From Chlamydiota bacterium (GTDB lineage: Bacteria; Chlamydiota; Chlamydiia; Chlamydiales; Criblamydiaceae): a stretch of DNA of 64,000 nt. Made by a program: the position numbers and the translations under genes. Under the pieces are notes generated by a model. The model saw only the letters and a program-made list of their open reading frames with translations, did no database searches and was not told the origin of the DNA. Shown piece after piece: positions 13,648 to 54,264 of the stretch. How positions within the stretch are numbered: position 1 is the stretch's first letter; each line of letters begins with the position of its first letter. The stretch is taken from contig JAYZJO010000065.1 of the NCBI GenBank assembly GCA_036164375.1, positions 3,810-67,809 of the forward strand, in the 5' to 3' direction.

Positions 13648-13654
13648 TATTTTT

Positions 13655-29559: not shown

Positions 29560-29584
29560 AGCTGGTTTACATCAGGGGAGATCT

Positions 29585-38025: not shown

Positions 38026-38038
38026 TGATTGATTTCTC

Positions 38039-38803
38039 CTAATACACAAAGCTTGCTAAAATTTGAAGTCCGACACTCCAGTGAGAATACTGGGGTATAT
38101 TCACTGGTACACCTAGAGAATTTGTATCGCTCCCTCTTCCAAAAACATTAATTTCATAAAAAGGGTTAATATGTAACCGCACAGCTTTTTGACAAACCGG
38201 CACACAAATTTCGTTTAACAGCTCGGCTCTAAAAGCGTATTTAGACTTGATGTTGACGCCCGTTGAGTTGACGTCTAAGCAAGAGTAAACATCCGGTTTA
38301 ACTTCCAGCTGGAGCCCATATCTGTATCGAGGACCGTAGGTGTTTTTAACAATAACCCCTACAGGTACAAAGACCTTCTTATATTTATATTTCAAATTAG
38401 CAAGCCCCGGACTTTGCTTGTCTTCAAAATATTGACCTCCGACCCCAACATAGGGGATAACCTCTTGTAAACAACACAAGCTACCGCGTGAGTTGTTCTC
38501 AAAAGCGTAGCCTACTTTCCAATCGAGCGTATAATCGGAAAGCGAGCTTTCTCGACAGGTAGAACCTGTTATTGAAGTAATATTCCACGCTCCGGAAAAC
38601 CGAACGTCGGTGTATATACACCTTTTTGAATAAGACGCGCCAGCGACAACTCCCCCCATAAAGCCATCTAAACTTGAGGAGCCGCTCTCTCGAGTCGACG
38701 TATAATAAAACTGGGGACCTATATAAGGTTCTATCGATGAGTAAACATCCGATCCGACTAGCACACATATATAGGACAATAAACACAAAATTTTCTTAAA
38801 CAT
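38039..38803 (-). CDS. Small Cys-containing outer-membrane beta-barrel protein
   Basis: 254 aa with a signal peptide (MFKKILCLLSYICVLVGSDVYS), alternating strand pattern, about 10 Cys and a C-terminal aromatic (..ASFVY). Confidence 0.45.
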   Translation of the reverse strand: MFKKILCLLSYICVLVGSDVYSSIEPYIGPQFYYTSTRESGSSSLDGFMGGVVAGASYSKRCIYTDVRFSGAWNITSITGSTCRESSLSDYTLDWKVGYAFENNSRGSLCCLQEVIPYVGVGGQYFEDKQSPGLANLKYKYKKVFVPVGVIVKNTYGPRYRYGLQLEVKPDVYSCLDVNSTGVNIKSKYAFRAELLNEICVPVCQKAVRLHINPFYEINVFGRGSDTNSLGVPVNIPQYSHWSVGLQILASFVY

Positions 38804-39003
38804 CTTTACACCTACCTAAAAAAAACACTTTAACAAAGTGCAAACCTAAATTTCAAAAAAAAAACACTTTTGTATAAATATTTTAGATAAAACCAGATTT
38901 CACCAAAGATCTCACACGCGAAAAAAGTAAAAAAGTTCGGCAAAAAACGGCTACACTATAAAAGCAGACTTGCGTTGATTATAACCCGTTCACCGACGCT
39001 ATT

Positions 39004-39195
39004 TTTTTTGTCGACAAAGACCCACATTTCGTTCATATGTTCAAAAGTCGCAACTTACCAACAACCCTTCAACAAATTATAAACATCACAATCTCTCAGG
39101 TAAAACCCCGCACTTATAAACATTTCCACACCGCCTTATAAAGAAGAGATATTATATACATACTTTATAGTACTCTTAATGGGCAGTGGAAAGTT
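39004..39195. repeat. Intergenic modular repeat, copy 1
   Basis: It contains the perfect palindrome TTTGTCGACAAA (39006-39017), CATTTCCACA (39120-39129), taaagaagag, an AT-rich spacer, and inverted CAGTGGAAAG (39183-39192). Confidence 0.7.
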
Positions 39196-39234
39196 TAACA
39201 AACAAGCTCTAATCTGAAAATCTAAAAATGTTGA

Positions 39235-39462
39235 AAGTTTGTCGACACTCCTAGGGATGCAATGTTCATAAAAATAGACGACAACATTGTTAATAACTCA
39301 AACTCGTCGATAACCCCTCACTTACAAACAGCCCGTTAACAAAAGATACACAACCATTTCCCCTTGGGTTTCCCTAGAAGGCTATCGACATTTCCACAGC
39401 GCCCTAAGAGTAGGAAGTAAAATATACTTATTATTTATTTCTAATAGAAAGGTGTTGAAAAT
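39235..39462. repeat. Intergenic modular repeat, copy 2 (more diverged)
   Basis: It contains TTTGTCGACA (39237-39246), CATTTCCACA (39388-39397), ctaagagtaggaag, an AT-rich spacer and gtgttgaaaa (39451-39460). Confidence 0.6.
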
Positions 39463-39513
39463 ATCTACTTTCCTAGAGACACTTGGCTGTAACAGATTTA
39501 GATAGGAGATCTC

Positions 39514-40146
39514 ATGTCCGCACTACACCCCAATAATTTTTTTGCATTAGAACATTACGACCATGCCGAACTGTTCAAAGATTGTGAATATGTATGGCAA
39601 GCCCTTCCTAAAATCGAAACTTATCTACAGTCTCACGACTTTCATATCGATATTGAAATTCCCAACGGCGTACACTTAAAAAATAAACACCAAATCACCA
39701 TCGGCAAAGGAACCGTTCTTGAGCCGGGCGCTTATATCGTAGGCCCTTGCATCATCGGTAAAAACTGCGAAATTCGCAAAAATGCCTACATCCGAGGGAA
39801 ATTTATTTGTGGAGACGGGTGTGTTGTTGGTTGTGAGGTCAAAGGGGCCATCTTCCTCAACGAAGCCAAAGCTGCCCACTACAACTACATCGGCGATTCT
39901 ATTCTCGGTAATAAAGTCAACCTCGGAGCGGGAACCAAGACGGCAAACTTGCGCTTCGATAAAAGGCCTGTACGGGTTCGTTGCGGCGATGGGTATGTCG
40001 ACACAGAGCTCAAGAAGTTTGGAGCCATTTTCGGCGATCTCTCGCAGTCTGGATGCAATTCAGTGACGAATCCGGGAACCCTCTTGGCAAAGGGCGCCAC
40101 AATTTTATCTTGCGCCAGTGCAAATGGATTCATTGACGCTCAGTAA
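39514..40146 (+). CDS. Left-handed beta-helix (hexapeptide-repeat) transferase-like protein
   Basis: 210 aa. It has a run of hexapeptide units (IGKGTVLEPGAYIVGPCIIGKNCEIRKNAYIRG...IGDSILGNKVNLGAGT), resembling the LbH domains of GlmU and sugar-nucleotidyltransferases. Confidence 0.6.
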   Translation: MSALHPNNFFALEHYDHAELFKDCEYVWQALPKIETYLQSHDFHIDIEIPNGVHLKNKHQITIGKGTVLEPGAYIVGPCIIGKNCEIRKNAYIRGKFICGDGCVVGCEVKGAIFLNEAKAAHYNYIGDSILGNKVNLGAGTKTANLRFDKRPVRVRCGDGYVDTELKKFGAIFGDLSQSGCNSVTNPGTLLAKGATILSCASANGFIDAQ

Positions 40147-40185
40147 ACTAGCTTATAAAATTTTGAAAATTTAATGGGAGTTGTT

Positions 40186-40965
40186 ATGAAAATTGCAGTT
40201 ATCGGAACGGGCGTTATGGGAAGTGGGCTTGCTCGCGTCTTGGCAAAAAACAATGAAATCATACTCTTTAACCGAACTTCAGATAAAGCAAAAGCGTTAG
40301 CAAAGGAAATTAACGGTCAAGTCGCCACCTCTTTAGAGGACGCTATTGAAAGCGCTGATCTTATTTTGCTGACGGTTAAACCTAAAGATTTAAAAAATGT
40401 ATCTAATCACCTCAAAGGAAAAATAGGGCCTGACCAAGTTATTGTTAGCGCACTATCTGCAACTCCCCGAGATGTTCTAGTGGCCCACTTAGGAACAAAC
40501 CATGTTTTGAGAATGATGCCAAACACGCCTTGTTTTTATGGAGCCGGCGTTGTGGTTTTGGGGGAAAGCAAGAGTATTTCCAAAGATCAGTGCGTTAGAT
40601 TTGAAGAGCTGTTTAGCGTTCTCGGAAAAGTGCACTGGGTGAAGGAGTCTCTTTTTAACGCTGCAACAGCGCTTGCTGGATCGGGCCCCGCTTTTATATT
40701 TGTCATTTTAGAGTCCCTAGTGGACGCGGGAGTTAACATGGGGCTCCCACTTCAAAAAGCAAAAGAAATGGCAATACAGGTCATTTTTGGGGCCATGACA
40801 AGCGTTGAGCAAAGCGGCAAGCACCCCGGCGAACTGAAGTGGGAGGTTACTTCACCGGGAGGATGTACGATAGCGGGGCTTACTTGTATGGAGGATGAAG
40901 CAGTTCGTTCGGGCCTTATCAACACCCTTTTAACAACATATGATCACCTTTGCAGTTGTCAATAA
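40186..40965 (+). CDS. proC: Pyrroline-5-carboxylate reductase
   Basis: It has MKIAVIGTGVMGSGLA (Rossmann fold), ILLTVKPKD, RMMPNTP, and the C-terminal PGELKWEVTSPGGCTIAGL signature. A GGGAG SD precedes the ATG at 40186. The track start is 40174. Confidence 0.85.
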   Translation: MKIAVIGTGVMGSGLARVLAKNNEIILFNRTSDKAKALAKEINGQVATSLEDAIESADLILLTVKPKDLKNVSNHLKGKIGPDQVIVSALSATPRDVLVAHLGTNHVLRMMPNTPCFYGAGVVVLGESKSISKDQCVRFEELFSVLGKVHWVKESLFNAATALAGSGPAFIFVILESLVDAGVNMGLPLQKAKEMAIQVIFGAMTSVEQSGKHPGELKWEVTSPGGCTIAGLTCMEDEAVRSGLINTLLTTYDHLCSCQ

Positions 40966-41014
40966 GTGCTATGAAAACCCCAGTTTTTTTGTTTATTGCT
41001 TTGACGATAACTTC

Positions 41015-41180
41015 ATTTTGTCGACAAGTGACGACTTATGATCGATGTATAGACAGATTATTAACAAGGAAGTTGCCCTCGAAGAATGGGTCAGTTATAC
41101 ACATTTCCACAGCACATTAATAAGAAGAACAAACATAAGTATATATATATTATTAGTTATAAGAGACAGTGGAAAACTTG
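41015..41180. repeat. Intergenic modular repeat, copy 3
   Basis: It contains TTTGTCGACA (41017-41026), CATTTCCACA (41102-41111), taataagaagaac, an (at)n spacer, and inverted CAGTGGAAAA (41167-41176). Confidence 0.7.
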
Positions 41181-41292
41181 ATGATATCGTCGATAAGTGC
41201 AAGAAACTATAGATTTATTTCGACGATCACAGTAGAAAAATATTGAATTGAGTAACAGAAGAGCTATAAAAAAAATATAGGGAAGCAGGAGA

Positions 41293-42012
41293 ATGAACGA
41301 TTGGTTAGCTATTTTTATTTTAATGTTGTCAACGGGGTTATCTATGGTTTTAGGTGCAGCCATAGCTTCTGTAGAGCATATAAGCAATCGCTGGTTAGAA
41401 AGCGAGTTTCGTCATACTGTAATCGCTTTTGGAGGAGGCGTTCTTGTTTCAGCTATTTCGTTACTTCTTGTTGAAGAAGGAATGAAAAACCTTTCTGTGT
41501 TTTCTGCAGTTTTGTGTTTTGGTGCCGGAGGTCTTTTTTTTATGGGAGTTGATGTTTTGCTCGACCTATGTCACGAATCTGCTTCACAGTTGATTGCCAT
41601 GCTTGCTGATTTTGTGCCCGAAGCTATTGCTGTGGGCGCTTTATACATTTTAGATAAACCACATGCTATACTTTTATCTTTTCTGATCGCTCTTCAGAAT
41701 ATCCCTGAGGGGTTTAATTCATATCTTGAGTTGTGTAAAAGCGGTAAACATACTGGAAAAAGTATTTTGAAACTGTTTTTAATGATGTCATTTGTTGGTC
41801 CTGTTTCCGGCCTTTCGGGATATTATTTTTTGACAGACTATCCTGGGATTGTTTCTGGGATTATGATGTTTGCTTCGGGAGGGATTCTTTACCTCGTTTT
41901 TCAAGATATTGCTCCGCAATCTAAAATGCAAAACCAAAAAATACCCGCTCTTGGTGCTGTAGGTGGGTTTTTGATAGGTATTATTGGAAAAATGTTTGTC
42001 GAAAATATTTAA
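41293..42012 (+). CDS. ZIP-family divalent metal (zinc) transporter
   Basis: 239 aa and multi-TM. It has the ZIP signature region LIALQNIPEGFNSY and a Gly-rich C-terminal helix. Confidence 0.8.
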   Translation: MNDWLAIFILMLSTGLSMVLGAAIASVEHISNRWLESEFRHTVIAFGGGVLVSAISLLLVEEGMKNLSVFSAVLCFGAGGLFFMGVDVLLDLCHESASQLIAMLADFVPEAIAVGALYILDKPHAILLSFLIALQNIPEGFNSYLELCKSGKHTGKSILKLFLMMSFVGPVSGLSGYYFLTDYPGIVSGIMMFASGGILYLVFQDIAPQSKMQNQKIPALGAVGGFLIGIIGKMFVENI

Positions 42013-43035: not shown

Positions 43036-43284
43036 TTACTTTGCTGTATCTTCGTTTACATAGGGGGTGGTGGTATTTGCTGCTTTTTGCAGCTCTCCCC
43101 AATATCCTCTGTCGAGCCAACCAGAGCTGCCATTCCAATAAAGGAAAAACCAGATAATCCCCCAGATTGGCATAACGATATATACCCATTTTAGCCATGT
43201 GGGCACTTTTGCGTCGGCGGAGGTGATTGATCCGTCAGCATAAACATCTAAATCTTCGTTTTTGTGGTCTTCACTTTTTGTCAT
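43036..43284 (-). CDS. Stand-alone CcoP/FixP N-terminal membrane-anchor domain protein (no haem motif)
   Basis: MTKSEDHKNEDLDVYADGSITSADAKVPTWLKWVYIVMPIWGIIWFFLYWNG matches the FixP_N pattern (D-DG...P-WW-w-f). There is no CxxCH. I chose the start at the internal Met, which overlaps the upstream gene by 14 nt. Confidence 0.5.
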   Translation of the reverse strand: MTKSEDHKNEDLDVYADGSITSADAKVPTWLKWVYIVMPIWGIIWFFLYWNGSSGWLDRGYWGELQKAANTTTPYVNEDTAK

Positions 43285-43474
43285 TATTACCTTCTTGATC
43301 GTCTGTATCATCTTCTAGCATACGCTTGGCTGGGGTTTCGTCCATATCGAGCCGCCCTTTTCTCCATAGATAAATAAAGATTAATAGAGCTCCACCAAAA
43401 AAAGCTGCGGCAAATGCAAAATGTAAAAGCCCTCCATAAACACCTATACCATCTAAAGTCTTTGCAATCATCAT
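43271..43474 (-). CDS. Small membrane protein, FixS/CcoS-like (or CcoQ-like)
   Basis: 67 aa with one TM segment, then YLWRKGRLDMDETPAKRMLEDD, which resembles the FixS/CcoS W-x3-GQ-DD..R.L.DD tail. It has a 4-nt ATGA overlap with the ccoO stop. Confidence 0.45.
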   Translation of the reverse strand: MMIAKTLDGIGVYGGLLHFAFAAAFFGGALLIFIYLWRKGRLDMDETPAKRMLEDDTDDQEGNNDKK

Positions 43475-44739
43475 GGAAGTTTTCTTTTTCCTTCAATAAT
43501 TTCTTTTGTGTTTATTGGATCTTTTCCTAGCCACCACGCTTGTGTGGGAGGGGTTATTCGCGTGCCCTTAGTCATTAAATATTGATATATCGCTTCGAAG
43601 CGGTAATTTGGGATTCCTATTTTGGAACTACCAGTACCTCTAGGGTCATCGTCGAAGAAATGATAGAACGCTGGCATGATAGAACCTTTACTTGCTGTTT
43701 TTGGTGACCAAAAATGGCTCTTATGCCAGTCTCGGCTAGGTCTTTTGATTCCTACGCGAGAAAGGTCGGGGCCAATTCTTCGCGTTGCAGGAAAGGTGAT
43801 TTCTTGGTAGATGTATTCGTTTGCCGAAGAGGGAGGGGCTGGATAATCTTCGTTTCCGTTTAAAACGACATCCTGAACGAGGGTTCGTGTTTGATCTGAG
43901 TGACAGTACCAACAACCTTCAATTGCATATATGTGTTCACCTTCAAAAATAAGCTCGTGGCGCGATCTAAAACCTAATTCGTGGCTTTTAAGTTCTTCTA
44001 CATTGGCAATTATTTCGCCTTCAGGGTCATATGTCCATCCTTCTTCTGGCCCAAATTTATACCTTGAGACTCTATACTCAAGAGGGTTTAAGACGTAAAT
44101 GACGCCGGGGTCTTTATGATAGTCTTGACGCGTGCTTTCATCTAAAATGGTGTAATTTGTGTCGACCCAATTTTCTAAAACTCCTTCCGATGAACCAAGA
44201 GAAAACCCTTCGTCACTACTTGGCTTGAATAATTCCCAGATGATAAAACTAGGCTTTCGAGAGTCCTTGTTGTCTGTTTTTTCCCATTCAGACTGTAAGT
44301 TTTTTACAAGTTTTTCAGCTTCAGCTTTAGCGTTAAACGCTCCGTCGGCCTCTTTTGGTTCGCGTAGCAGGAGTAAGTCTGAAGTAAGTTTTAATGTAGG
44401 ATCATCTTCTTTTGTAATATATTTTTGTAGATTTTCGGGGGCAACAAAACGTACTGAAGGGGATTCTTGAAAAGCTAAAAGAGTGTACTTGTCTTTGATA
44501 TGATAGACAAACTGTAGCTCGGAGCCTCCTTTGCTTGTATTGCTACTAATGTAGAGATTGGGGTCAGCGACTTCATACATTTGTTTTTGGTAAGCGCTAC
44601 TGGGATTGATCCAGCTTGGATCTAAGTAGGTGGGAGCAACTATAGTGATACTGACAGCTATTGTGAAGAGAATTAAGATGCCAATGACTGTAACTACTGC
44701 TGACCACTCTAGTTTGTAAAAAACATTTTTTCCACTCAT
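43471..44739 (-). CDS. ccoO: cbb3-type cytochrome c oxidase subunit II (CcoO) with a large N-terminal insertion
   Basis: 422 aa with an N-terminal TM segment. The CcoO core is EGCWYCHSDQTRTL...RRIGPDLSRVGIKRPSRDWHKSHFWSPKTASKGSIMPAF. CxxCH sits at residue 276, whereas I recall about 60-70 in canonical CcoO. Confidence 0.7.
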   Translation of the reverse strand: MSGKNVFYKLEWSAVVTVIGILILFTIAVSITIVAPTYLDPSWINPSSAYQKQMYEVADPNLYISSNTSKGGSELQFVYHIKDKYTLLAFQESPSVRFVAPENLQKYITKEDDPTLKLTSDLLLLREPKEADGAFNAKAEAEKLVKNLQSEWEKTDNKDSRKPSFIIWELFKPSSDEGFSLGSSEGVLENWVDTNYTILDESTRQDYHKDPGVIYVLNPLEYRVSRYKFGPEEGWTYDPEGEIIANVEELKSHELGFRSRHELIFEGEHIYAIEGCWYCHSDQTRTLVQDVVLNGNEDYPAPPSSANEYIYQEITFPATRRIGPDLSRVGIKRPSRDWHKSHFWSPKTASKGSIMPAFYHFFDDDPRGTGSSKIGIPNYRFEAIYQYLMTKGTRITPPTQAWWLGKDPINTKEIIEGKRKLP

Positions 44740-46175
44740 GATTCACCCTCGGACTCAACAATTCTTGGTTTTAGAACGATCGTATTAAATATATTGATCA
44801 CGAACAAGATGTTAGCAATAAGAATAATGCTTCCGCCTATTGCTCTTAAAGTCCACCATGGTCGCATTTCGGCAACTGTTTCTAGGAATGGCATCATCGT
44901 TAAATTGTTATGAAATTGTGCATAACTTGTTCCATCAGCCCAGGTTGCCCATAACATTCCTTGAAAGAACCCGCCAACCCATAAAGCGGTAATAAACGGA
45001 AGGCTCCCCAGCAAATTTAGGGAGAAATGCCAGTCGGCTAGTCGCTTAGACCAAAGTGGCTTTCCTGTCATACCCGGGAGAGCTTGATAGATGCCGGCAA
45101 TTGCAAAGTAGGTAAAACTTCCGTATAGGGCAATATGTGCATGACCAATAATCCAGTCAGTTTTTGAGGTAATTTCGTTGATGTTTCTTAAAGCTTGAAC
45201 GGGTCCTTGTATGCACGTTAAAAGATAAAAGACAGTACCGATCATGATAAAGCGAACGGGGGCACTTTGAGTATATTTACTCCACTCTCCTCGCATCGTT
45301 AAAAAGAGGTTGGTAATAACTGAAAACACGGGAATGAATAGCCATAAAGAAAAGACGATCGATGTCGTTTGAAGCCATTGTGTCATTGGGCCGTGAATAA
45401 TGTGGTGAGCTCCGACCCAAGCATAGACAAAAGCAATCGACCAGAACCCGATCATCGAAAGCCTATGACTGTAAATTGGAGTGTTTACTAGCTTAGGTAA
45501 GGAATAATAAGCAGAGGCTAGCCCCATAGGTGTAAAAATAAGACCGACTAAATTATGAACATAGAAAAAACTGAGGTTTACCCGAGATATTCCCCCGGGA
45601 AGAAGATACATTGCCCAGCTACCAGCAACAAATGTGAATGTTGTCCAAATTGCTGTACCCATTGTGTACCAAAGGGAAACATACATTTGCTTGTACTTTC
45701 TGTTGGCGATTGTCATGAAGATGTTGACGACGACTAAAAGCCAGGCAAGGGTTACCATCGTTTTAACGGGAATAATCCATACAAAGTTGGGAAGCTCAGC
45801 ATATTCCCATCCATAGTTTGTGCCCCAGGGGTATGAAAATTCCCCTAATATTAGACCCGGCCACCAAAGGGCAGCGCTGAGATAGGCGAGTTTTGGGCTC
45901 CAAAGTCCCACACCACACAGTCTTTGTATAAAGTAGTAGATTAAGCCGATATCGGCAGAAAGCAGCCACAGCAGTGTCACAGTACCTACGTGTGTAGGTC
46001 TTACGCGCCCAAAGTGTACGTATTCTCCTTGAAAGTAGTCGGGAAACACAAAGCCATTAAAAGCGATGAATACCCCCACAGACATGCCCACAACCATAAA
46101 AAGTACGGCTGGAAATATCATTAATTTACTTGGTAAGTCGTTGTATGTTGTTGTCATATCCCAATCCTCAGTCAC
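44736..46175 (-). CDS. ccoN: cbb3-type cytochrome c oxidase subunit I (CcoN)
   Basis: 479 aa with about 12 TM segments. Haem-copper oxidase His motifs are present (GAHHIIHGPMTQWLQT, GHAHIALYGSFTYF). Its stop overlaps the ccoO start (ATGA). Confidence 0.85.
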   Translation of the reverse strand: MTEDWDMTTTYNDLPSKLMIFPAVLFMVVGMSVGVFIAFNGFVFPDYFQGEYVHFGRVRPTHVGTVTLLWLLSADIGLIYYFIQRLCGVGLWSPKLAYLSAALWWPGLILGEFSYPWGTNYGWEYAELPNFVWIIPVKTMVTLAWLLVVVNIFMTIANRKYKQMYVSLWYTMGTAIWTTFTFVAGSWAMYLLPGGISRVNLSFFYVHNLVGLIFTPMGLASAYYSLPKLVNTPIYSHRLSMIGFWSIAFVYAWVGAHHIIHGPMTQWLQTTSIVFSLWLFIPVFSVITNLFLTMRGEWSKYTQSAPVRFIMIGTVFYLLTCIQGPVQALRNINEITSKTDWIIGHAHIALYGSFTYFAIAGIYQALPGMTGKPLWSKRLADWHFSLNLLGSLPFITALWVGGFFQGMLWATWADGTSYAQFHNNLTMMPFLETVAEMRPWWTLRAIGGSIILIANILFVINIFNTIVLKPRIVESEGES

Positions 46176-46323
46176 ACAGTAATTTTAAGATATTTCTTGA
46201 TGCAAGACAAGGTGTTTTTTGGATTTATCGCAATCTCATTAAAAATCTATCTATTAAAACTCGGTTCGAGCAATCGTTTAGAAACTTTTTTTGTAAGATC
46301 TTTAGTATTGTTTTCAAGCGCCG

Positions 46324-49300
46324 CTACTGTTTGTTGCTTTCAAACCTTTTAACCAGTTCAGCCTGACGCTGCTCCGATCTTACAGAGGCGCCTATCGATG
46401 AGATCGTTTTGATTTTTAACTTTTGTAGAGAGTCTGTTTTACTTTTAATCTCATCTATTTTTTCTTGAACCTCTGGGGATTGTATTTTTCCCTGTTCTTG
46501 TGTTTTTTGTTTTTCAAGTGACTCTATTTTCCTGTCGATGTTTTCGATCATGCTGTTCTTTATCTCAGCGATTTTTTCTTCGGGTAGTGTTTTTATTCCT
46601 AGGTTGCCGTCGATATATTGAAACTGTTCGTTTTCAAGGTCAACTAGTCGATAGAAGTCTTGAGTGATCTCATCGGCGTTTTGCTGTGAAATTACAGCTA
46701 ATCCGAGATCCATCATAATCGCTTTTTCATTTTTTATTTCTTCAATCAATTCCTGAAGAGTTTGGTCGATAACTTCAAGCTTTTTGAGTTGTAGTATCAA
46801 TGCGAGTTCTTTTTGATACGCTGCTAAGGCTTCAGAGCTTTCAGCACTACCCGTTTTCACTTGAGAGTGTAGGGCTACTTGATTTTCTTTTGTTTCATCA
46901 AGTTCTTTTTGAACTTTAGATAGTTTGGGGTACTCCTGAATGCGGATATTTTCAATAAGAATTTCTGATTCATTGAACGCTTTGTAGAGCGATGTTAACA
47001 ACGCCCCGCGTTTTTTTGCTTCTGAACTCAATGTGCGTATATACATCACCAGTTGCATCCGTTGCAGGGAGCTTGTTTGGTCGCCCCAAGGCGTCATAGA
47101 GGTTCCTTGAACGCCGTATTTAATTGAACGTAGAAGTCTTAAGTCATCTCTCGTATCGAGCCAGTCTAGGTTAGTAAGCATTCGAGGTTTGGCGTCGACC
47201 ATAGCTCCGGCTCTATCTCCCGTACCATCGGCTTCTCGACCGTGGCACACCGCACAGTTTAACTCAAAAAGGTACTGCCCTCTTTCTAGATTTTCTGGAG
47301 TGTAGAAGCGTTTTTTTATATAGTATCCATCTTCAGTTTTGTTGACGGGGTGCGGGATGATATCAAAGTACTCTTGTACCCCACTGTTTTGGTATACTTT
47401 TGGGTTAACATCGACGAAATAGTCCTCTTTTAGTTTGAGGCACGATAGTTCGGGGGATGGTGATTTCGACTTTTTATTATCGCTATCACTTTCGAGCTTG
47501 GTGCCTTCTTTTTTCATTTCGTTAATGACGTCTTCTGCTGTGTATTTCCACTTTGGTACATCTTCAGAGGTTCTGATGACTTTTGCCCCTGGCAATGATG
47601 AGTAAATCCAATCGACAAGTTGTTCGGTTTCATCGTTGCTGAGTACTGGTATACCGTCGGCCATCGGTTTGTCTTTACCAACTTCTCCCCAAGGAGGCAT
47701 AGGAGTTCCTTTGACTCCATGAACAATTGATTCGTAGACTTTTTCACGTGTTAGATTGCGTAGGAAGTCTGCATTTCTGAGGCTCTTTGGTATTGGATAA
47801 ATCCACTCTGATACCGGACCATTTCCTTGAAGAAATTCTCCATGGCACTGTGCGCAGTGGATGTCGTATGCTTGTTTTGGGTTGAATCCTTTGTTTTCCC
47901 AAATTTGTCGCACTTCGTCGCGGTTTCTTACTCCAAGCACGTCGAGCATATAGGTTAATGCATAGAATTTATTGTTGCTAAAGGGGAGTACAGGCATAAT
48001 TGAGCGTGCAACGTGTGAGCTAGGATTTTTAAAGTGTTCCATTAGCCATTCGTCGGTTCTGTAGACACCTGCCCAATTGGGGCGTGGGCCTATGAGCCTT
48101 CCAAGCCCGTATTCTTGTACATACATCATGAGAATGCGGTGAACTCGCTCTTTCCACACCTTTTTTGCTTCTTCATCGTTTTCGAGCTCTGTGTTTTTAG
48201 CTCTTGAGGCAAATCTAAAGTTGGAGTAAAGGGAATCTATACTTTCGGGGTGCTTTTCTTTAATTTTTTCTAAGATAGAGTTTTCACGGACACCGTCGAC
48301 AATGCGCGCATCGATTTCATCTTTATGCTTTTCAATCGTGTGTACAATTTGCGATCCAGCAATTTCTTCGGGGAAGAGCTTTTGGAACCACTCTCTTTCG
48401 CTATATAGCGTTTCAAAGTCTACATCGGTATTTTTTTCTATTGCATAACCTACATCAGAGGTGTAGCCTTTTAGTCGATGACACGCAGCGCATCCCTCTA
48501 CAGCAAAAACCTCCATTGCATAGTCGAGATCGTGCATTTGAGCGGGCGAAGTGGGCTGCTCCCAGCTCATCAGCTTACCTGCTTCCCACTGTTGAATGGC
48601 GACTTTGTGGCCTGTATCGGACTCCATCTTTCTTTGCCCTTTTTGAGCCAACAGAAACGTCATTAAAGCTTCGAGCTCTTCGTGGTCGAGGTGAAAGTTG
48701 GGCATTGTCGAAGTTTTAAGGTCTGCTTGGGGCCAAGTCATCGATTCTTTAATAAACCAAGGATATTTATTGCCCTCTTCTGTCAGTTCGGGGCCAATCC
48801 CACCTCTAGAAAATCCAGCTATCCGATGACATGCGTAGCAGGCTTGAGAAATGTACAGTTTCTTTCCCCGCTGGTACGTTTTAGTTAAAAGATCGACATC
48901 AGAAACCATCGCAGAGATTGCTTTACGATCAGATGCGGCCTTTTGAAAGGATTGATCCGTATCCTGAACATGTTGAATTATCATTTTTTCTAAATTGATG
49001 GCCTCAGCTTTTTCAAAAAGAGAGCCTGTGGCACCTTCGCTTTCTTTGTTTGTGGCGATAAAGTTCTCTATTTCTTCGTCTGTAGTTACTCTCGACTTGA
49101 TCAATTTTTCAGCAAGAAGTTTTGACCCTAAGATATGAACAATGTCGTTGTTGATTTTGTCGATAAACTCTTTGGGGTTGCCTTGGTTTCTTCGCATGAT
49201 CTTGACTTGAGCTGCGATCTCTTCGAGTTCTTTCTCAGGAAGCGTATAGTCTTTTTCTTTGGAGCGTAGTTCACTGAAGGTCGTTGCAAAACCCTTATCA

Positions 49301-50298
49301 CTAATAGCTCTTTGCAATGTGATTAAAGATTGTAGCGAGTTAATTTCTGTCGTGTACGACTTTTTGATCGCATTAAATTTTGCAAGCCTTTGGTTGGCCG
49401 TGATGTTTGCGATATCGTACGCGCTTTGTAGCGCTCCGGCGCTGGTGTTGTGGCACTGTACACACTTTGACTCAATCAGCGATCCTACAAGAATAGGTGT
49501 TGTTTGAAAGAGGAGTTCGTGTCCGGGTTTATGATTAAAAACAGTTGAAAAAGTAGGATCGTTTTTAGGATCTTCCTCGAGAAATTGAGGCTCCGGTCCC
49601 ATAAACTCTTCGTGGTATTGACCATCAAATACTGGCCCGTGAGCTTTCGGGGTCGTAAGACCTCGGCCGTTTCCTCCGTGGCAGGAGGTACATCCGTATT
49701 CTTCGATGGGGTGTAAGTCAAATGGGCGCGTTTCTCTTCCTATGAGAGGGTGCATTGCTAGCACTTTCGTAACGTCGTAGGTTTGATCGCCAACAGTAAC
49801 AGTTTTTAGAGATTCATATTGATCGGCTTGTTTTAGGCGGCTATTAACTTCGCTTTGTTTTCCCTCTGCAATTAGCTGTTCGTTGGTTTGTTGATCTCTG
49901 AGATTGCTGATCGCTTGATCAAGTTTTCCCCATACATAATTTTCATTGGGAATCAGTATTGGAAAACCATCCGAGTCGAGGCGCATGTTGCCGTTAATAT
50001 CATAGTCGATTTTTGTTGGAGAAAAATGTTGAAACTTTAAGGCGACATGACAAGAAGTGCAGCGATCAATTTCTACAGGTCCATTATTTTTACTTTCCAG
50101 AACAATTTGCTTAACACCTTTAGCAAAAGGAGGAGGCGCTTCACCGGTGTATGTGGAGCGAAACGCCTCGAGGGCGACGTAATCGTTTTGGTATTCGCGG
50201 TATTCAGGGTAAATCTCTCGAAATAAAAACACGCCAAAAAGAGCGGCACAAATGACCCCCAAACTTATCAAAACAATCTGGTAGAGTTCTCCCCGCAT
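46324..50298 (-). CDS. Membrane-anchored heptahaem c-type cytochrome with a C-terminal coiled-coil tail
   Basis: 1324 aa with N-terminal TM segment LYQIVLISLGVICAALFGVFLF. There are seven CxxCH motifs (CTSCH x2, CVQCH, CYACH, CAACH, CAQCH, CAVCH). The last two domains resemble the CcoP dihaem module. The final ~234 aa are heptad-like and E/K/Q/L-rich. Confidence 0.8.
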   Translation of the reverse strand: MRGELYQIVLISLGVICAALFGVFLFREIYPEYREYQNDYVALEAFRSTYTGEAPPPFAKGVKQIVLESKNNGPVEIDRCTSCHVALKFQHFSPTKIDYDINGNMRLDSDGFPILIPNENYVWGKLDQAISNLRDQQTNEQLIAEGKQSEVNSRLKQADQYESLKTVTVGDQTYDVTKVLAMHPLIGRETRPFDLHPIEEYGCTSCHGGNGRGLTTPKAHGPVFDGQYHEEFMGPEPQFLEEDPKNDPTFSTVFNHKPGHELLFQTTPILVGSLIESKCVQCHNTSAGALQSAYDIANITANQRLAKFNAIKKSYTTEINSLQSLITLQRAISDKGFATTFSELRSKEKDYTLPEKELEEIAAQVKIMRRNQGNPKEFIDKINNDIVHILGSKLLAEKLIKSRVTTDEEIENFIATNKESEGATGSLFEKAEAINLEKMIIQHVQDTDQSFQKAASDRKAISAMVSDVDLLTKTYQRGKKLYISQACYACHRIAGFSRGGIGPELTEEGNKYPWFIKESMTWPQADLKTSTMPNFHLDHEELEALMTFLLAQKGQRKMESDTGHKVAIQQWEAGKLMSWEQPTSPAQMHDLDYAMEVFAVEGCAACHRLKGYTSDVGYAIEKNTDVDFETLYSEREWFQKLFPEEIAGSQIVHTIEKHKDEIDARIVDGVRENSILEKIKEKHPESIDSLYSNFRFASRAKNTELENDEEAKKVWKERVHRILMMYVQEYGLGRLIGPRPNWAGVYRTDEWLMEHFKNPSSHVARSIMPVLPFSNNKFYALTYMLDVLGVRNRDEVRQIWENKGFNPKQAYDIHCAQCHGEFLQGNGPVSEWIYPIPKSLRNADFLRNLTREKVYESIVHGVKGTPMPPWGEVGKDKPMADGIPVLSNDETEQLVDWIYSSLPGAKVIRTSEDVPKWKYTAEDVINEMKKEGTKLESDSDNKKSKSPSPELSCLKLKEDYFVDVNPKVYQNSGVQEYFDIIPHPVNKTEDGYYIKKRFYTPENLERGQYLFELNCAVCHGREADGTGDRAGAMVDAKPRMLTNLDWLDTRDDLRLLRSIKYGVQGTSMTPWGDQTSSLQRMQLVMYIRTLSSEAKKRGALLTSLYKAFNESEILIENIRIQEYPKLSKVQKELDETKENQVALHSQVKTGSAESSEALAAYQKELALILQLKKLEVIDQTLQELIEEIKNEKAIMMDLGLAVISQQNADEITQDFYRLVDLENEQFQYIDGNLGIKTLPEEKIAEIKNSMIENIDRKIESLEKQKTQEQGKIQSPEVQEKIDEIKSKTDSLQKLKIKTISSIGASVRSEQRQAELVKRFESNKQ

Positions 50299-50314
50299 AC
50301 AATCACCTACTTAT

Positions 50315-51640
50315 TTAATGCCTTGCAAATGTTTCGGTCCATGGCCATATCCAACCCCAGTTAGCACCGCGGAAAAATGTACCTACAATAATTAAAAGCC
50401 CTTGAAAAGTCATAAATGCCGTATATAAAAATATCGCTAAGTAGCGGCTTCGGTGAAACCACACCCCTTCCCCCTTGGGATTTCGATCTAGGTAGGGGAT
50501 TGCCATCAATCCAACGACTATTATTGCAGGAATTGCAACACCTCCCCAAAAAGCGTTGTAGGCGACCAGTTCTTGAAGGCCTAAAAAGTACCAAGGAGCT
50601 TTAGATGGATTCGGTGGGTTACTTGGGTTTGCCGGCTCTTCAAGAGGAGCATTTATAAATGCTAATACGAGAACAAGGGCTAGTGTTGCCATAAAAGCGA
50701 CGAGTTCAGCGCGGATGAGGTGTGGCCAAGTGAACACAAAATTATAGGGCCCTTTATCGACTGTCGGGCAAGTGCCGCGAACAAGCTCCATTAACCCGTA
50801 GGTGCGTTTGACGCCGGGGGCAAAAGATTCTTTGGTATCAGATCGCTGTATGACGCGGTAGGGGTCAGGGCGTAAGCGGTCGGGAGGACGCGATAACCCT
50901 CCATCTTTGCGGATGCGCCAAAAGTGCACACCGATAAGCGTTCCAGTAACGAGAGGTAAGAGCGCCACATGAAGGACGTAGAAACGAATGAGCGCATCCT
51001 GTCCAACCTCTGTCGAAGCGAGTAGCATGACTCTGTTGATATTATGTTCAAAACCCGGAATGTTAGGAGCGTATCCGGCAATGTTTGATCCGACGGTGAT
51101 CGCCCAAAAAGCTAGCTGGTCCCACGGAAGAAGGTAGCCTGTAAATGAAAGGAGCAGTGTCATCACCATAAGGATAACACCAATTACCCAATTAAACCTG
51201 CGTTCGCCTTTGTACGATCCGGTATAGAAGACGCGCGACATATGTAGAAACACAAAGAGCACCATCATATGCGCGCTCCAACGGTGCATATTTCGATACA
51301 TCATTGCAAAAGGAGTCGTGTCTTGCCAGTCTTTCATGATCTGATAGGCGCGGTCTTCAGCAGGTACGTAGTAGAACATCAAAAGGATGCCTGTGAAGAC
51401 AAGAATTAAAAAAAGGCTCGTCGTAATCGCTCCAAGGCCGAGAGTGTAGAATGGATCGAGAGAATTTTTATGGCACTTTACCGGGTGAAAATGGAGAAAG
51501 AAATTCTTAAAAACAATTTCAGATCTATCGACATCGTTATTTGGGTAGTTGTGACGAAAAATCGACCTAACGATAAGTTTGGGTAGGTTGGCGATATATT
51601 CAGGCCACGTTTCGCGGCGCTTCCCTTGAAAGACTGCCAT
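50315..51640 (-). CDS. Cytochrome b (fused b6-like N-terminal part plus subunit IV-like C-terminal part)
   Basis: 441 aa. Motifs are [44 protein letters not shown], and a PEWY-region analogue ([14 protein letters not shown]). Confidence 0.85.
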
Positions 51641-51667
51641 ATTGTTGAGCTCCAGTTTTCTATTATC

Positions 51668-52180
51668 TTATGCTGTTGGCGTATACCACGCCGCTTCCCA
51701 GTCTAGTGTTGTTTTTGCTTTGTCCACAATCAAGTCGCCAGAGGCCCCTTGGTAAACCGTATAAAAGTTGAGGTCTTGAGGGGCCGGACCCCCTGTAACT
51801 CTTCCCCATCGGTCGTAGGTCGATCCATGACAAGGACATGAGTATCCTGTTTCTACTGCATTAATTGTGCATCCTAGATGTGTACAAACAGCAGTTTGTA
51901 CGCGAACCTTTCCAGCTTTTGTTTCGACAAAAACTTTTTGTTTTGGATCAAAAACTTTTCCATCTTTTGCAAGAACCTCTTCGGGGCGTCCCAAAGAAAA
52001 AGAGCTTGGAGGCACTTTCATTGCATTTGGGTAAAGAAATCCAAGCATCGAAGCGCCAAACATTTGTCCAGCACCAACGAGGCAGGCCCCCACGCCCATA
52101 AGTGCGAGGAATGAACGTCTAGAGATTTTTGGATCCTTATCATCGGAATCAACATTGAGTGAGTTTCTATGTTTTGGCAC
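51668..52180 (-). CDS. Rieske [2Fe-2S] protein with a twin-arginine signal
   Basis: 170 aa with the Tat motif ISRRSFLALMG (coded at about 52106-52123). The cluster boxes are CTHLGCT and CPCHGS. Confidence 0.9.
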   Translation of the reverse strand: MPKHRNSLNVDSDDKDPKISRRSFLALMGVGACLVGAGQMFGASMLGFLYPNAMKVPPSSFSLGRPEEVLAKDGKVFDPKQKVFVETKAGKVRVQTAVCTHLGCTINAVETGYSCPCHGSTYDRWGRVTGGPAPQDLNFYTVYQGASGDLIVDKAKTTLDWEAAWYTPTA

Positions 52181-52189
52181 TACGTCTAC

Positions 52190-52327
52190 CTATTTGTTTT
52201 CTTCTTCTCGGAATAGTTGATATTTTACGTCTTCATTGTCATCAAACTGCCCTTGTCGCAGGTAGTAGATGTATGTTGCTATTCCCGCCAACCCCATCGC
52301 TATGGATATTGCAATATATACGATCAT
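52190..52327 (-). CDS. Unannotated 45-aa FixS/CcoS-like cbb3 maturation mini-protein
   Basis: My own translation is MIVYIAISIAMGLAGIATYIYYLRQGQFDDNEDVKYQLFREEENK. One TM segment is followed by the characteristic R-x-GQFDD motif. It is too short for the ORF track and sits 10 nt upstream of the Rieske gene. Confidence 0.6.
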   Translation of the reverse strand: MIVYIAISIAMGLAGIATYIYYLRQGQFDDNEDVKYQLFREEENK

Positions 52328-52389
52328 CGTTGTTATTTCTATTAAAATTTTAATTTTTGGTTTCTAACATCCATATTTACAAAAACCTC

Positions 52390-54264
52390 CTAGCCGATCC
52401 ATCGGAATGAGTAGTTCATCGCATCCATTGTCACTGCCTGGGTAGGACATTTTTCAGCACATAGCCCGCAGCGGATGCACAAGTCTTCATCTTTGAGCAT
52501 AGCCGACCCCATTACAGCGAGTTGCTCTTCTGTCATTTCTGAGCTATCGACACCATAAAAATTATCTGTTGCTCTTCGTAGGTTCCCTTCGCCGGCGTCT
52601 AAGTTAAGTTTGCTGATCGGAACGAGTTTTAGGCAATTACAAGGACATACATCGACACAACCGTTGCATTTGATACAGAGCTCTCCATTGAAGACGGGGC
52701 TTACGTGACACTGTAAGCAGCGGTTGGATTGCTCGTGTGCTTCCTCGTCGGTATAGTTGTTTTCAACCATATTATTATTGAGGACGCGTAGTTTTTCTGG
52801 CTGGTTACTCGGAAGTTGCCACTTTGTTCGTAAGTATGTTTTGTCTCGATGAGGAGATAACTCAGTAAACTCTCCGACAAACTCTTTGTAGGGACGTGTC
52901 CCTTGTAAGTCCGAATCGATAGCGCGCGCAGCTTCTTGACCATGACGTATTGCGGTAATAAATAGGGCGGCACCAAAAGCGGCGTCGCCACCCGCATATA
53001 CTTTATCGACAGTTGTTCGACCTGAGCCGATTTCGGTTTTGATAATGCCGCGATCGACAACTAGTTGGTCGCGTTTACTCCATCCCTTGAGAAAGCTCAT
53101 ATCCATTCCTTGACCGATAGCAAGAGCTATTGTGTCGCAAGGAATGACGTATTCGGCGTTTGGAACCATCTGCGGAGAAAATCGGCCGTTGTGGTCAAAC
53201 AGGGAGGTGATCTCTTGAACTTTCAGTCCGACAACTTTACCACTTTCATCGCGCATAACTTCTTTGGGGGCGAGACGATTGATCGTTTTGATTCCCTCTT
53301 CCATGCCATCTTCAATTTCAAATTCATCGGCAGTTTGTTCATCGCGGGTTTCTAAGCAGACCATGGTGACCGTTTTGGCTCCATTTCGTACAGAAGAGCG
53401 AGCGACGTCGTAAGCGACGTTACCGCCGCCGACAACAATAACATTGTCGCCAATTTTCCATTTCTGCTCAGCGCAACGGACGCGTAAGTATTCTATTCCT
53501 CTAATAATATCGGGCTGGTCGGCCCCTGGTATCGGTAGGTCTCGGGATTTCCATAATCCCACTCCAATAAAGATGGCGTCATATTTTTCGTCGAGCTCTT
53601 CCATGGTGATGTCGCGCCCGACTTTCATGTTGTAGTAGATTTTTGCACCGAGATGTTCGATGGCGCCACACTCAGCGATAGCGATATCATTTTTTAGGCG
53701 GTAGTTGGGAACGCCGTAGGTGAGCATGCCGCCGGGCATCCGCATCATTTCGTAGATATCGACTTCATAGCCAAGGCGTAGAAGGTCGTGCGCGCAGGTC
53801 ATCGATGCACATCCCGCTCCGATACAGGCAACTTTTAGTCCATTGGGTTTTGGTGTCGTTGTTCCGCGAGCATAGCTATATTCGAGCGATTTGATATGCG
53901 CCTCTTTGCTGAGTCCAAACCATTCGTCTAGATAGCGTTTTTGAGCGCGAATTGTGAGCGTTTTGTCGACGCGATCGCGGCGACAAGCCATTTCGCAAGG
54001 GGCCCCACAAATCATTCCACAGATCGATGCGAAAGGGTTGGGACCGCGCGCAATTTTATAACCTTCGAGTAGATCGCCGCGATGCAACGCTAGCATATAG
54101 CCTCTTGGGTCGGTATTTACCGGACAACCATCTCTACAGTCGATCTGCCGAAGATAGTAGTCTAAATCGGGAATGACGACGTCGTAGAGCTCTTTATATG
54201 TTTTTATTATTTCTTCATTATCGTCTGACATGTATCCACTCCAAGTCACAGGACTTATTCCCAA
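52390..54264 (-). CDS. GltD-like NAD(P)H-dependent flavin oxidoreductase fused to a 2x[4Fe-4S] ferredoxin domain
   Basis: 624 aa. The N-terminal Cys clusters are CRDGCPVNTDP and CGMICGAPCEMAC. Two dinucleotide folds are present (VACIGAGCASM, VIVVGGGNVAYDVA). The C-terminal part has CIKCNGCVDVCP and CIRCGLCAEKCP. Confidence 0.7.
   Translation of the reverse strand: MGISPVTWSGYMSDDNEEIIKTYKELYDVVIPDLDYYLRQIDCRDGCPVNTDPRGYMLALHRGDLLEGYKIARGPNPFASICGMICGAPCEMACRRDRVDKTLTIRAQKRYLDEWFGLSKEAHIKSLEYSYARGTTTPKPNGLKVACIGAGCASMTCAHDLLRLGYEVDIYEMMRMPGGMLTYGVPNYRLKNDIAIAECGAIEHLGAKIYYNMKVGRDITMEELDEKYDAIFIGVGLWKSRDLPIPGADQPDIIRGIEYLRVRCAEQKWKIGDNVIVVGGGNVAYDVARSSVRNGAKTVTMVCLETRDEQTADEFEIEDGMEEGIKTINRLAPKEVMRDESGKVVGLKVQEITSLFDHNGRFSPQMVPNAEYVIPCDTIALAIGQGMDMSFLKGWSKRDQLVVDRGIIKTEIGSGRTTVDKVYAGGDAAFGAALFITAIRHGQEAARAIDSDLQGTRPYKEFVGEFTELSPHRDKTYLRTKWQLPSNQPEKLRVLNNNMVENNYTDEEAHEQSNRCLQCHVSPVFNGELCIKCNGCVDVCPCNCLKLVPISKLNLDAGEGNLRRATDNFYGVDSSEMTEEQLAVMGSAMLKDEDLCIRCGLCAEKCPTQAVTMDAMNYSFRWIG

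Follow-up and report, generated by a model that had tools for sequence, protein, structure and literature searches.

A 64-kb stretch of DNA from a member of the Chlamydiota (hereafter the window) carries on its minus strand, between positions 43036 and 54264, nine co-oriented open reading frames (ORFs) that make up a respiratory operon with a Rieske/cytochrome b (bc) half and a cbb3 oxidase half. On balance, this operon appears to join an anammox-type, NAD(P)-linked Rieske/cytochrome b complex to a minimal cbb3 O2 reductase, coupling the respiratory chain to NAD(P)(H). As judged from its protein sequences, the bc half is homologous to the NAD(P) oxidoreductase-containing Rieske/cytochrome b complexes of the anammox bacterium Kuenenia, and the reductase would consist of CcoN, a long CcoO and two small membrane proteins, with no dihaem CcoP. 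The block is far more than a product of chance, because the seven CxxCH motifs of its large cytochrome c are all invariant in 117 full-length homologues and its gene order is kept across dozens of species-level genomes. The operon belongs to the environmental chlamydiae (Parachlamydiaceae, Waddliaceae and relatives), in which it is conserved.

For chlamydial ancestors, CcoNO and PetBD have been reported at the KEGG level (Dharamshi 2023), and the supplementary files of that study hold no ccoP, ccoN or petB terms. In Protochlamydia, expression of the respiratory-chain genes, taken as a class, falls late in development and into the infectious stage, and bc1-cbb3 supercomplexes have been solved in Proteobacteria (PMC10556555). 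A search of the accessible literature found no description of the chlamydial operon, of its heptahaem subunit or of its flavoprotein link, and none of a kinship with the anammox complexes beyond a tree label; Baymann 2012 had the cytochromes b of Parachlamydia and Waddlia in one group with Kuenenia complexes 1 and 2. The KEGG-level picture of PetBD plus CcoNO is corrected here to a nine-gene system with a heptahaem wire, neither c1 nor CcoP, and a probable link to NAD(P)(H). This composition suggests a self-contained respiratory chain linked to NAD(P)H. That the classical Chlamydiaceae lack such a chain, as stated in a preliminary description of this DNA, agrees with the loss described by Dharamshi 2023.

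The Rieske/cytochrome b module

The Rieske protein, a compact soluble domain (PF00355), can be aligned from end to end with the Kuenenia Rieske structures 9RK3 and 9RK4. Its box II, CPCHGSTY, is of the 'SY' type, and the boxes CTHLGC and CPCHGSTY are found in 66 of 67 Rieske orthologues. According to a figure legend of Baymann 2012, Rieske proteins of the SY type correlate with potentials of about +300 mV; by its sequence, the chlamydial protein is probably a high-potential one. The twin-arginine translocation (TAT) signal is recognized by TIGR01409. A TatC gene is located at window positions 31996-32943 (plus strand), 19 kb from the TAT-dependent Rieske gene.

Cytochrome b is composed of a b6-like four-helix part fused to a part resembling subunit IV (SUIV). 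It carries the four haem histidine ligands and the Qo motif APWY, and these motifs are kept in 68-69 of the 69 orthologues. The best NCBIfam models are ExtP for the N-terminal and ExtQ for the C-terminal part, and the best match in the Protein Data Bank (PDB) is b6 with 134 bits. The N-terminal half is 50% identical to Kuenenia cytochrome b (206 bits), and the C-terminal part is 50% identical to the Kuenenia SUIV-like protein (132 bits). By these scores, the protein stands nearer to Kuenenia than to b6f or bc1. The Kuenenia locus used in this comparison (L005, Kustd1480-85-type) was fetched via the sequence of the solved Rieske domain; its gene order is Rieske, cytochrome b, NAD(P) oxidoreductase, SUIV and multihaem cytochrome, and its proteins have the same top NCBIfam models as the window set, namely PRK12771, ExtP, ExtQ and ExtS.

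His50 of the chlamydial cytochrome b, situated in an LH(F/I)HP motif, is invariant in all 69 orthologues and aligns with His62 of Kustd1481, the neighbouring RK motif being kept as well. In Kuenenia, this histidine is the proposed ligand of an extra haem b placed between the monomers (Hauser 2025, PMC12954380). A cysteine that could bind haem cN covalently ahead of helix A is absent from all 69 cytochrome b orthologues, the window protein having FYTLGLG where Kuenenia has FTWCMGG. A b6f-type complex with haem cN was rejected on account of the missing cysteine.

The Kuenenia complexes are described as containing a Rieske protein above +300 mV, a b6-like cytochrome b together with a SUIV-like protein, a multihaem cytochrome c and a cytoplasmic NAD(P) oxidoreductase (Hauser 2025, PMC12954380). 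Common to both Kuenenia sets (Kustd1480-1485 and Kuste4569-4574) and the chlamydial one are the compact Rieske of high-potential type, the closely similar cytochrome b and SUIV-like parts, a multihaem cytochrome c standing for c1/f, a GltD/NfnB-like oxidoreductase with four iron-sulphur (FeS) clusters, and the conserved histidine. The chlamydial proteins differ in that cytochrome b and SUIV are fused, the SUIV part is devoid of two extra helices, the haem cN cysteine is missing and the Qo motif reads APWY. Furthermore, the chlamydial operon opens with the flavoprotein gene, next to which a CcoS-like mini-gene is found, and the multihaem subunit carries seven haems and differs in its C-terminal half. 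In the chlamydiae a cbb3 O2 reductase is the partner, as opposed to a hydroxylamine oxidoreductase (HAO)-like protein or an unknown partner in Kuenenia, and the chlamydial host is an aerobic or microaerobic heterotrophic endosymbiont.

The flavoprotein

The first gene of the operon encodes a flavoprotein with the Pfam domains Fer4_20, Pyr_redox_2 and twice Fer4, for which PRK12771 is the best NCBIfam model (387 bits). Read from a TTG start the protein has 624 residues, whereas gene callers give 613. Two N-terminal [4Fe-4S] clusters precede the FAD/NAD(P) domain, and a ferredoxin domain with two further [4Fe-4S] clusters is found at the C-terminus; the cysteine clusters are kept in 60 of 61 sequences. 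A cytoplasmic location is predicted because no transmembrane (TM) helix is present.

The flavoprotein is 31% identical to the NAD(P) oxidoreductase of the Kuenenia cluster from end to end (residues 27-619 versus 3-564), and the alignment takes in the C-terminal ferredoxin domain. Its best PDB relatives are the NfnB-like modules of bifurcating enzymes. The gene had earlier been taken for a mere GltD-like neighbour; its homology to a subunit of a known complex and its position upstream in all 50 loci that extend far enough contradict this, and its role probably changes what the system does.

The heptahaem cytochrome and the CcoP question

Exactly seven CxxCH motifs are present in the cytochrome c (residues 80, 203, 279, 487, 603, 815 and 1015), which is attached to the membrane by one N-terminal TM helix. 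Among the homologues mentioned above Met532, Met768, Met867 and Met1068 are conserved in addition to the motifs. Three haems lie in a region of multihaem type and are followed by four class-I domains, with the fifth haem domain resembling FixO. Two long helical regions (about 300-450 and 1100-1324) are poorly conserved, and a variable linker of about 100 residues precedes the last haem domain.

Haems 1-5 are collinear with those of the 945-residue multihaem subunit of Kuenenia. By its sequence, the heptahaem cytochrome is placed where c1 or f would stand, because the bc half is homologous to the Kuenenia or 'group A2' complexes, whose c subunit is multihaem. The preliminary description had the multihaem protein replace both c1 and CcoP; the former half of this proposal is upheld by the Kuenenia homology, the latter is not, since closer comparison did not support the supposed CcoP relatedness of the last two haem domains. 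Both domains match class-I families only (PF13442/PF00034). When the haem 6/7 region was searched against the PDB as a single sequence and as a profile, the Kuenenia dihaem cytochrome 6H5L_B was matched over the whole domain (2e-12), followed by ActE of alternative complex III (ACIII; 1e-7), CcoP chains (4e-7 to 6e-6) and QcrC. The matches to CcoP span only about 28 residues around the CxxCH motif. Taken together, the best matches of domains 6 and 7 are Kustc0457, ActE, c552 and QcrC. An AlphaFold2 model of the region built from 17 sequences is poor (mean predicted local distance difference test score 56.6, predicted template modelling score 0.40); a Foldseek search with this low-confidence model returned the same relatives as the sequence searches and no CcoP among the top 50. 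As far as their sequences indicate, haem domains 6 and 7 are generic class-I domains and not specifically related to CcoP.

The 82-residue protein at the end of the operon had earlier been described as a FixP_N-only anchor. FixP_N is its top Pfam family, but with 24.2-24.5 bits the match falls below the gathering threshold (GA) of 24.9, and matches at E<=1 occur in only 6 of 40 members of the family. The family profile detects no CcoP chain in the PDB at E<=10, only noise. The protein has 543 homologues, of which the best 120 are 79-161 residues long, carry no Pfam annotation and are called 'hypothetical' or 'uncharacterized' wherever the source gives a name; the motif WNGSxGWxDRGxWxELQxAANTTxP is invariant. 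The protein may be a remote relative of the N-terminal CcoP anchor.

These data bear on the view that the operon encodes a plain obligate bc-cbb3 supercomplex with a split CcoP, in which the 82-residue protein is the anchor, the haem domains have moved to the end of the heptahaem cytochrome and the GltD-like gene is unrelated. The order ccoN-ccoO-small TM protein-small TM protein does mirror ccoNOQP, FixP_N does head the Pfam list for the 82-residue protein, and TIGR00782 (ccoP) is the best NCBIfam model for residues 999-1092 of the heptahaem cytochrome. Besides the sub-threshold and patchy FixP_N match and the nearer kinship of domains 6 and 7 to the Kuenenia dihaem cytochrome and ActE, however, the two domains are separated by about 200 residues that include a variable linker, an arrangement unlike that of CcoP. 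Moreover, the flavoprotein is invariably linked and homologous to a subunit of a known complex, and the linkage to ccoNO is not universal. This view as a whole is therefore considered unlikely. The positional echo of ccoNOQP is real, but homology of the pieces to CcoP is not established. A dihaem CcoP is reportedly canonical in the proteobacterial enzyme and not universal.

Subunits of the oxidase half

CcoN can be aligned along its whole length with that of P. stutzeri (3MK7_A, E=1.3e-60). The equivalents of His60, His207, His257, His258, His345 and His347, which bind haem b, haem b3 and CuB, as well as those of Tyr251 and of most residues of the K-channel analogue (T215, Y223, S240 and Y317) are kept and are invariant in 59 of 59 chlamydial orthologues. 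An enzyme of the nitric oxide reductase (NOR) type was rejected since the CuB histidine ligands and the tyrosine are present. Relative to P. stutzeri, the substitutions E323Q, H243G and W204F are found family-wide, again in 59 of 59 orthologues (loci L006-L085); W203 is Phe in 41 orthologues and Trp in 18.

Glu323 of P. stutzeri CcoN is the glutamate near the proximal histidine of haem b3, and cbb3 oxidases have NO reductase side activity. The invariance of the three substitutions could thus be read in favour of a CcoNO that serves the bc module mainly as an O2 scavenger or NO-detoxifying electron sink and not as an energy-conserving reductase, and protection of O2-sensitive enzymes has been suggested as one role (Dharamshi 2023). 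The three CuB histidines and the cross-linked tyrosine, marks of O2-reducing haem-copper oxidases, are nevertheless equally invariant, and the K-channel analogue is largely conserved, so that such a function appears very unlikely as the main one.

In CcoO, the FixO domain is recognized at residues 258-365 (81.6 bits), and the CxxCH motif and the methionine of the MP(A/S)F motif are conserved. Since residues 256-364 match residues 45-146 in alignments with solved CcoO chains, the protein contains an insertion of about 210 residues (about 40-255) between the TM anchor and the monohaem domain, to which no known domain could be assigned. It is found throughout the family (protein lengths 340-433 residues) and is at the same time its least conserved part. 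The insertion could be a docking element for the heptahaem cytochrome.

Two small ORFs had been listed as FixS/CcoS-like. For the 45-residue protein this was confirmed: it matches FixS (PF03597) with 28.9 bits against a GA of 23.1 and TIGR00847 with 28.7 bits, has the motif GQFDD, and its orthologues in three other genomes all exceed the GA (30.5, 28.1 and 24.9 bits). A tblastn match between the flavoprotein and Rieske genes is present in nearly all of the loci that reach this position (70 loci). The role of the protein would be either in the maturation of cbb3 or as a small structural subunit. For the 67-residue protein the assignment is marginal, with 23.2 bits against the same GA in the window only and no match for the orthologues in three other genomes, yet it aligns as a paralogue of the 45-residue protein with the common motif Y..RKG..D..E. 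A tblastn match at its position was obtained in 54 of 80 loci.

Conservation and synteny

A 'Chlamydiota bacterium' metagenome-assembled genome (MAG) encodes a protein with 100% identity to the heptahaem cytochrome. The latter has more than 600 homologues, and every named source among the top matches belongs to the Chlamydiota, including Parachlamydiaceae, Parachlamydia and Protochlamydia phocaeensis. Chlamydial marker genes are also present in the window: Pom, a Protochlamydia outer-membrane protein family, at 22491-23432, and UPF0137 with a ParA-like gene at 28783-30322, which fits a chlamydial genome.

For the synteny comparison one genome per species was taken. A heptahaem relative was found in 108 genomes, nearly all of them Chlamydiota, and the best 80 loci, virtually all chlamydial and read to 10 kb on either side, were searched with the nine window proteins by tblastn. 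In each of the 50 loci extending far enough upstream, the flavoprotein and Rieske genes precede the heptahaem gene. On the downstream side six of the 80 loci end too early; among the remaining 74 informative loci ccoN follows in 67, in 64 of them directly. Three genomes other than that of the window, with different flanks, retain the same nine genes with the flavoprotein gene first. The linkage of the bc and cbb3 halves is strong but not universal, and it is not obligatory at the gene level, at variance with the 'obligate' bc-cbb3 unit proposed earlier: seven genomes have no adjacent ccoNO and three have inserts.

The operon is also found on contigs deposited as Verrucomicrobia (L058) and Gammaproteobacteria (L073) MAGs. 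With identities of 86% (L058) and 76% (L073) to the window, their cytochromes b are typical of chlamydiae. A spread of the operon outside the phylum was rejected as the protein identities match those of labelled chlamydiae, and by their sequences both contigs are probably mis-binned chlamydial DNA.

The synteny data also permit a reading as two separate, merely co-transcribed complexes between which the tethered last haem domain shuttles electrons by collision, in the manner of the membrane-anchored cytochrome cy. The low-confidence, variable linker of about 100 residues ahead of haem domain 7 and the 148-nt gap between the halves in the window would fit this, as would the 10 genomes in which downstream ccoNO is absent or comes after inserts, and bc1-cbb3 of R. 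capsulatus uses the tethered cytochrome cy (the entry 6XKX names a CcoP-cy fusion). The adjacency of the two halves in 91% of genomes, with stop/start overlaps in some of them (4 nt between the heptahaem and ccoN genes in locus L002), argues against separate complexes, and the conserved CcoO insertion and the two conserved small subunits could be docking elements. On these grounds two separate complexes are held to be rather doubtful.

Relatives of the module outside the Chlamydiota

The closest non-chlamydial cytochromes b, with 44-56% identity, are from Acidobacteria (Ca. Solibacter, Acidoferrales) and Planctomycetota. On a contig of the Ca. Solibacter type (L086:7611-18397), flavoprotein, Rieske, fused cytochrome b and multihaem cytochrome genes are arranged in the same order as in the window and are followed by a type II molybdoenzyme set, namely a Molybdopterin oxidoreductase, a 4Fe-4S subunit, an EB_dh haem subunit and a NarJ-like chaperone. 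This suggests an NAD(P)-linked Rieske/cytochrome b complex whose wired partner is either a reductase of the nitrate, selenate or chlorate type or a nitrite oxidoreductase. Two further metagenome contigs have the order flavoprotein-Rieske-cytochrome b, one of them with more multihaem genes. Because the same gene order precedes a molybdoenzyme in Ca. Solibacter, the module docks different high-potential terminal enzymes, of which cbb3 is one of several; within the limited sample, the cbb3-linked form is seen only in Chlamydiota. The Ext system of Geobacter, to which the ExtP, ExtQ and ExtS models refer, belongs to the same cytochrome b clade; the terminal module of Ext and L086 is a molybdoenzyme or a selenite/tellurite system, in contrast to the oxidase of the chlamydiae. 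A protein encoded at L089:3711-4988, a few genes upstream of another flavoprotein-Rieske-cytochrome b cluster, resembles cytochrome bd subunit I and also matches the Cytochrome_CBB3 (class-I haem c) domain.

Rieske/cytochrome b complexes with an NAD(P) oxidoreductase have been known almost only from anammox bacteria, which are hard to grow. The same module is a fixed part of a respiratory operon in at least about 100 species-level environmental chlamydial genomes, and its terminal enzyme varies with the lineage: chlamydiae have an O2 reductase, Acidobacteria a molybdoenzyme and Kuenenia an HAO-like enzyme. What looked like an anammox curiosity becomes a widespread modular design with an identified acceptor. 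The operon is also present in relatives such as Parachlamydia, Protochlamydia and Waddlia, and these three can be grown in amoebae.

Proposed electron transfer and direction of the NAD(P) reaction

From the observed composition, homology, conserved ligands and synteny we infer a physical association of the subunits, a route for the electrons and a direction of the NAD(P) reaction. Menaquinol would be oxidised at the Qo site. The high-potential electron would pass from the Rieske cluster through the heptahaem chain to the CcoO haem, then to haem b of CcoN and finally via haem b3/CuB to O2. The low-potential electron would take the b haems, the conserved His50-ligated site and the FeS chain to the FAD of the flavoprotein, and by this branch the chain would be coupled to NAD(P)(H). 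No soluble cytochrome c would be needed because every carrier is membrane-anchored and co-encoded. Since the operon is kept in 67 of 74 informative genomes, a hard-wired path from quinol to O2 is a reasonable reading, and a stable supercomplex would be plausible.

For the Kuenenia complexes, reduction of NAD(P)+ by quinol bifurcation has been proposed (Kartal 2013; Hauser 2025, PMC12954380), and the combination of menaquinone with a high-potential Rieske has been argued to fit NAD(P)+ reduction (Hauser 2025, PMC12954380). Non-Chlamydiaceae chlamydiae encode the classical menaquinone synthesis (Pillonel 2018). Because the SY-type Rieske, kept in nearly all orthologues, together with menaquinone is the combination of Hauser 2025, we tend, by analogy, towards the Kartal/Hauser model as carried over from Kuenenia, in which quinol bifurcation, pulled here by O2 as the acceptor, would reduce NAD(P)+. 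In its full form, it would describe an O2-pulled, quinol-bifurcating megacomplex which drives the second electron up via low-potential b haems, the inter-monomer haem and four FeS clusters to NAD(P)+. Such a megacomplex is put forward tentatively, as a rather improbable whole. If true, it would generate NAD(P)H at the expense of the quinol pool and without drawing on the membrane potential, as a kind of respiratory 'transhydrogenase', and it would be the first NAD(P)-linked Rieske/cytochrome b complex genetically tied to an identified high-potential acceptor.

The flavoprotein could also work in the opposite sense, as an electron input from NAD(P)H via FAD and FeS clusters to the n-side haem or haems b and on to quinone at or near the Qn site. 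The operon would then encode a complete chain from NAD(P)H to O2 that bypasses complex I and Nqr, combining an NAD(P)H dehydrogenase of its own with a Q-cycle and an oxidase, a design nearly as likely for a heterotroph. Anatomy and synteny fit equally, all steps would be thermodynamically downhill, and for heterotrophs, chlamydiae and Solibacter among them, reoxidation of NAD(P)H is a more obvious need than its production; in addition, modules of the GltD/NfnB type bind NADPH in all solved relatives. On the other hand, an SY Rieske operating with menaquinone predicts b haems of very low potential, which would be poor acceptors for NAD(P)H electrons on their way to quinone, and the only studied homologues, those of Kuenenia, are read in the opposite direction. 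Electron input is accordingly regarded as possible.

Several observations weigh against the proposed NAD(P)-linked joint complex and its bifurcating function. On the functional side, NAD(P)+ reduction in Kuenenia is itself a proposal and the extra haem b an AlphaFold3 prediction (PMC12954380); without haem cN, the n-side chemistry of the chlamydial cytochrome b may differ from that of Kuenenia, and a heterotrophic endosymbiont has no obvious need for NAD(P)H from quinol. The flavoprotein matches the Kuenenia subunit with 276 bits versus 290 bits for NfnB-like PDB modules; as the Kuenenia subunit is no closer than the NfnB modules, orthology is argued from architecture and synteny, and three relatives of the cytochrome b were found without a flavoprotein. 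On the side of the gene order, the heptahaem and ccoN genes are separated by 148 nt in the window and by inserts of 1.8-5.6 kb in L041, L061 and L082, and seven loci with at least 3.8 kb of downstream sequence (L012, L018, L033, L035, L036, L039 and L064) have the bc half followed by unrelated genes.

Comparison with other respiratory assemblies

As in the bc1-cbb3 supercomplexes of Rhodobacter capsulatus (6XKW/6XKX) and Pseudomonas aeruginosa (8SMR/8SNH, PMC10556555), membrane-attached c haems would link a Rieske/cytochrome b part to a C-family oxidase, and CcoN and CcoO are homologous to those of the solved assemblies. In the proteobacterial systems c1, CcoP and CcoQ are of the canonical kind, the genes are split over separate operons, additional soluble or tethered cytochromes are present and a flavoprotein is missing, whereas the chlamydial block is a single operon without c1 and CcoP and is known here from its genes. 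With the actinobacterial bcc-aa3 supercomplex (QcrCAB-CtaCDEF; 7QHM, 6ADQ) it would have in common the logic of a class-I cytochrome subunit that wires complex III to the oxidase and dispenses with a soluble cytochrome c, which on the chlamydial side is read from the genes. QcrC is also among the sequence matches of haem domains 6 and 7 and among the fold matches obtained with the low-confidence model. In contrast, bcc-aa3 contains an A-family oxidase, a dihaem cytochrome and a cytochrome b of a different clade, and has no NAD(P) module.

Compared with canonical ccoNOQP (P. stutzeri, 3MK7/5DJQ), the CcoN ligands and Tyr251, the monohaem domain of CcoO and two small membrane-protein genes after ccoO, at the positions of ccoQ and ccoP, are shared. 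Differences are the missing dihaem CcoP, the long insertion in CcoO, the substitutions E323Q, H243G and W204F, and the CcoS-like paralogue at the ccoQ position. Among solved structures, ActE of ACIII (6F0K_E, 6LOD_E, 8K9E_E) is one of the nearest to the last haem domain. ACIII as a whole is unrelated to Rieske/cytochrome b complexes, and the likeness to ActE concerns one class-I domain. ActE provides the electron-exit haem towards the oxidase. The terminal haem domains of the heptahaem cytochrome are similar to ActE and QcrC, through which electrons leave other hard-wired III-IV assemblies.

Gene organization and genomic context

The features of the block are listed in Table 1. Gene order and tight junctions agree with the preliminary description, as do the TAT signal of the Rieske protein, the heptahaem nature of the cytochrome and the absence of canonical c1 and CcoP genes. 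Recomputed junctions are -4 nt for CcoN/CcoO and for CcoO/67-residue protein, 16 nt for cytochrome b/heptahaem and 27 nt for Rieske/cytochrome b. No canonical c1 gene is present among the nine ORFs, and no dihaem CcoP gene was found in the block or in the 64-kb window; among window ORFs of at least 100 residues, the only CxxCH motif outside the heptahaem cytochrome and CcoO is a cytoplasmic CLQCH in the flavoprotein.

Table 1. Features of the respiratory operon, with window coordinates
Feature	Coordinates	Strand	Basis
GltD/NfnB-like NAD(P)-binding FeS flavoprotein	52390..54264	-	Pfam + NCBIfam
CcoS/FixS-family 45-aa single-TM protein	52190..52327	-	PF03597, TIGR00847
TAT-exported Rieske [2Fe-2S] protein, 170 aa	51668..52180	-	PF00355, TIGR01409
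Cytochrome b, 441 aa, b6/subunit IV fusion	50315..51640	-	Cytochrome_B + weak Cytochrom_B_C
Membrane-anchored periplasmic heptahaem cytochrome c, 1324 aa	46324..50298	-	seven CxxCH + Pfam
Spacer between bc half and cbb3 half, 148 nt	46176..46323		largest gap of block
CcoN, 479 aa, C-family (cbb3) haem-copper oxidase catalytic subunit	44736..46175	-	COX1/ccoN
Long CcoO, 422 aa	43471..44739	-	FixO
67-aa single-TM protein, ccoQ position of ccoNOQP	43271..43474	-	marginal FixS, paralogy
82-aa single-TM protein (91 aa from upstream ATG at 43311)	43036..43284	-	sub-threshold FixP_N

The spacer between the two halves contains no terminator-like site and a single promoter-like match (9/12). In a promoter/terminator scan of the region 42.5-56.5 kb, site counts were not above the shuffled expectation.

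Elsewhere in the window, a 188-residue ORF carries a signal peptide and the motif CGGxSxCGGK twice; after it come a gene of the MbnB/TglH/ChrH (DUF692) family and one for DUF2063 (13081-15596, plus strand). This layout resembles that of bufferin-type, copper-related clusters for ribosomally synthesised and post-translationally modified peptides; a tie to the copper supply of the oxidase would be pure speculation. The cumulative GC skew of the plus strand has its minimum at about 40 kb (window positions about 38000-42000), where the skew passes from negative to positive values. At the same point the predominant coding strand changes from plus to minus, so that transcription converges there; an origin would give the same sign of the skew but the opposite gene orientation.

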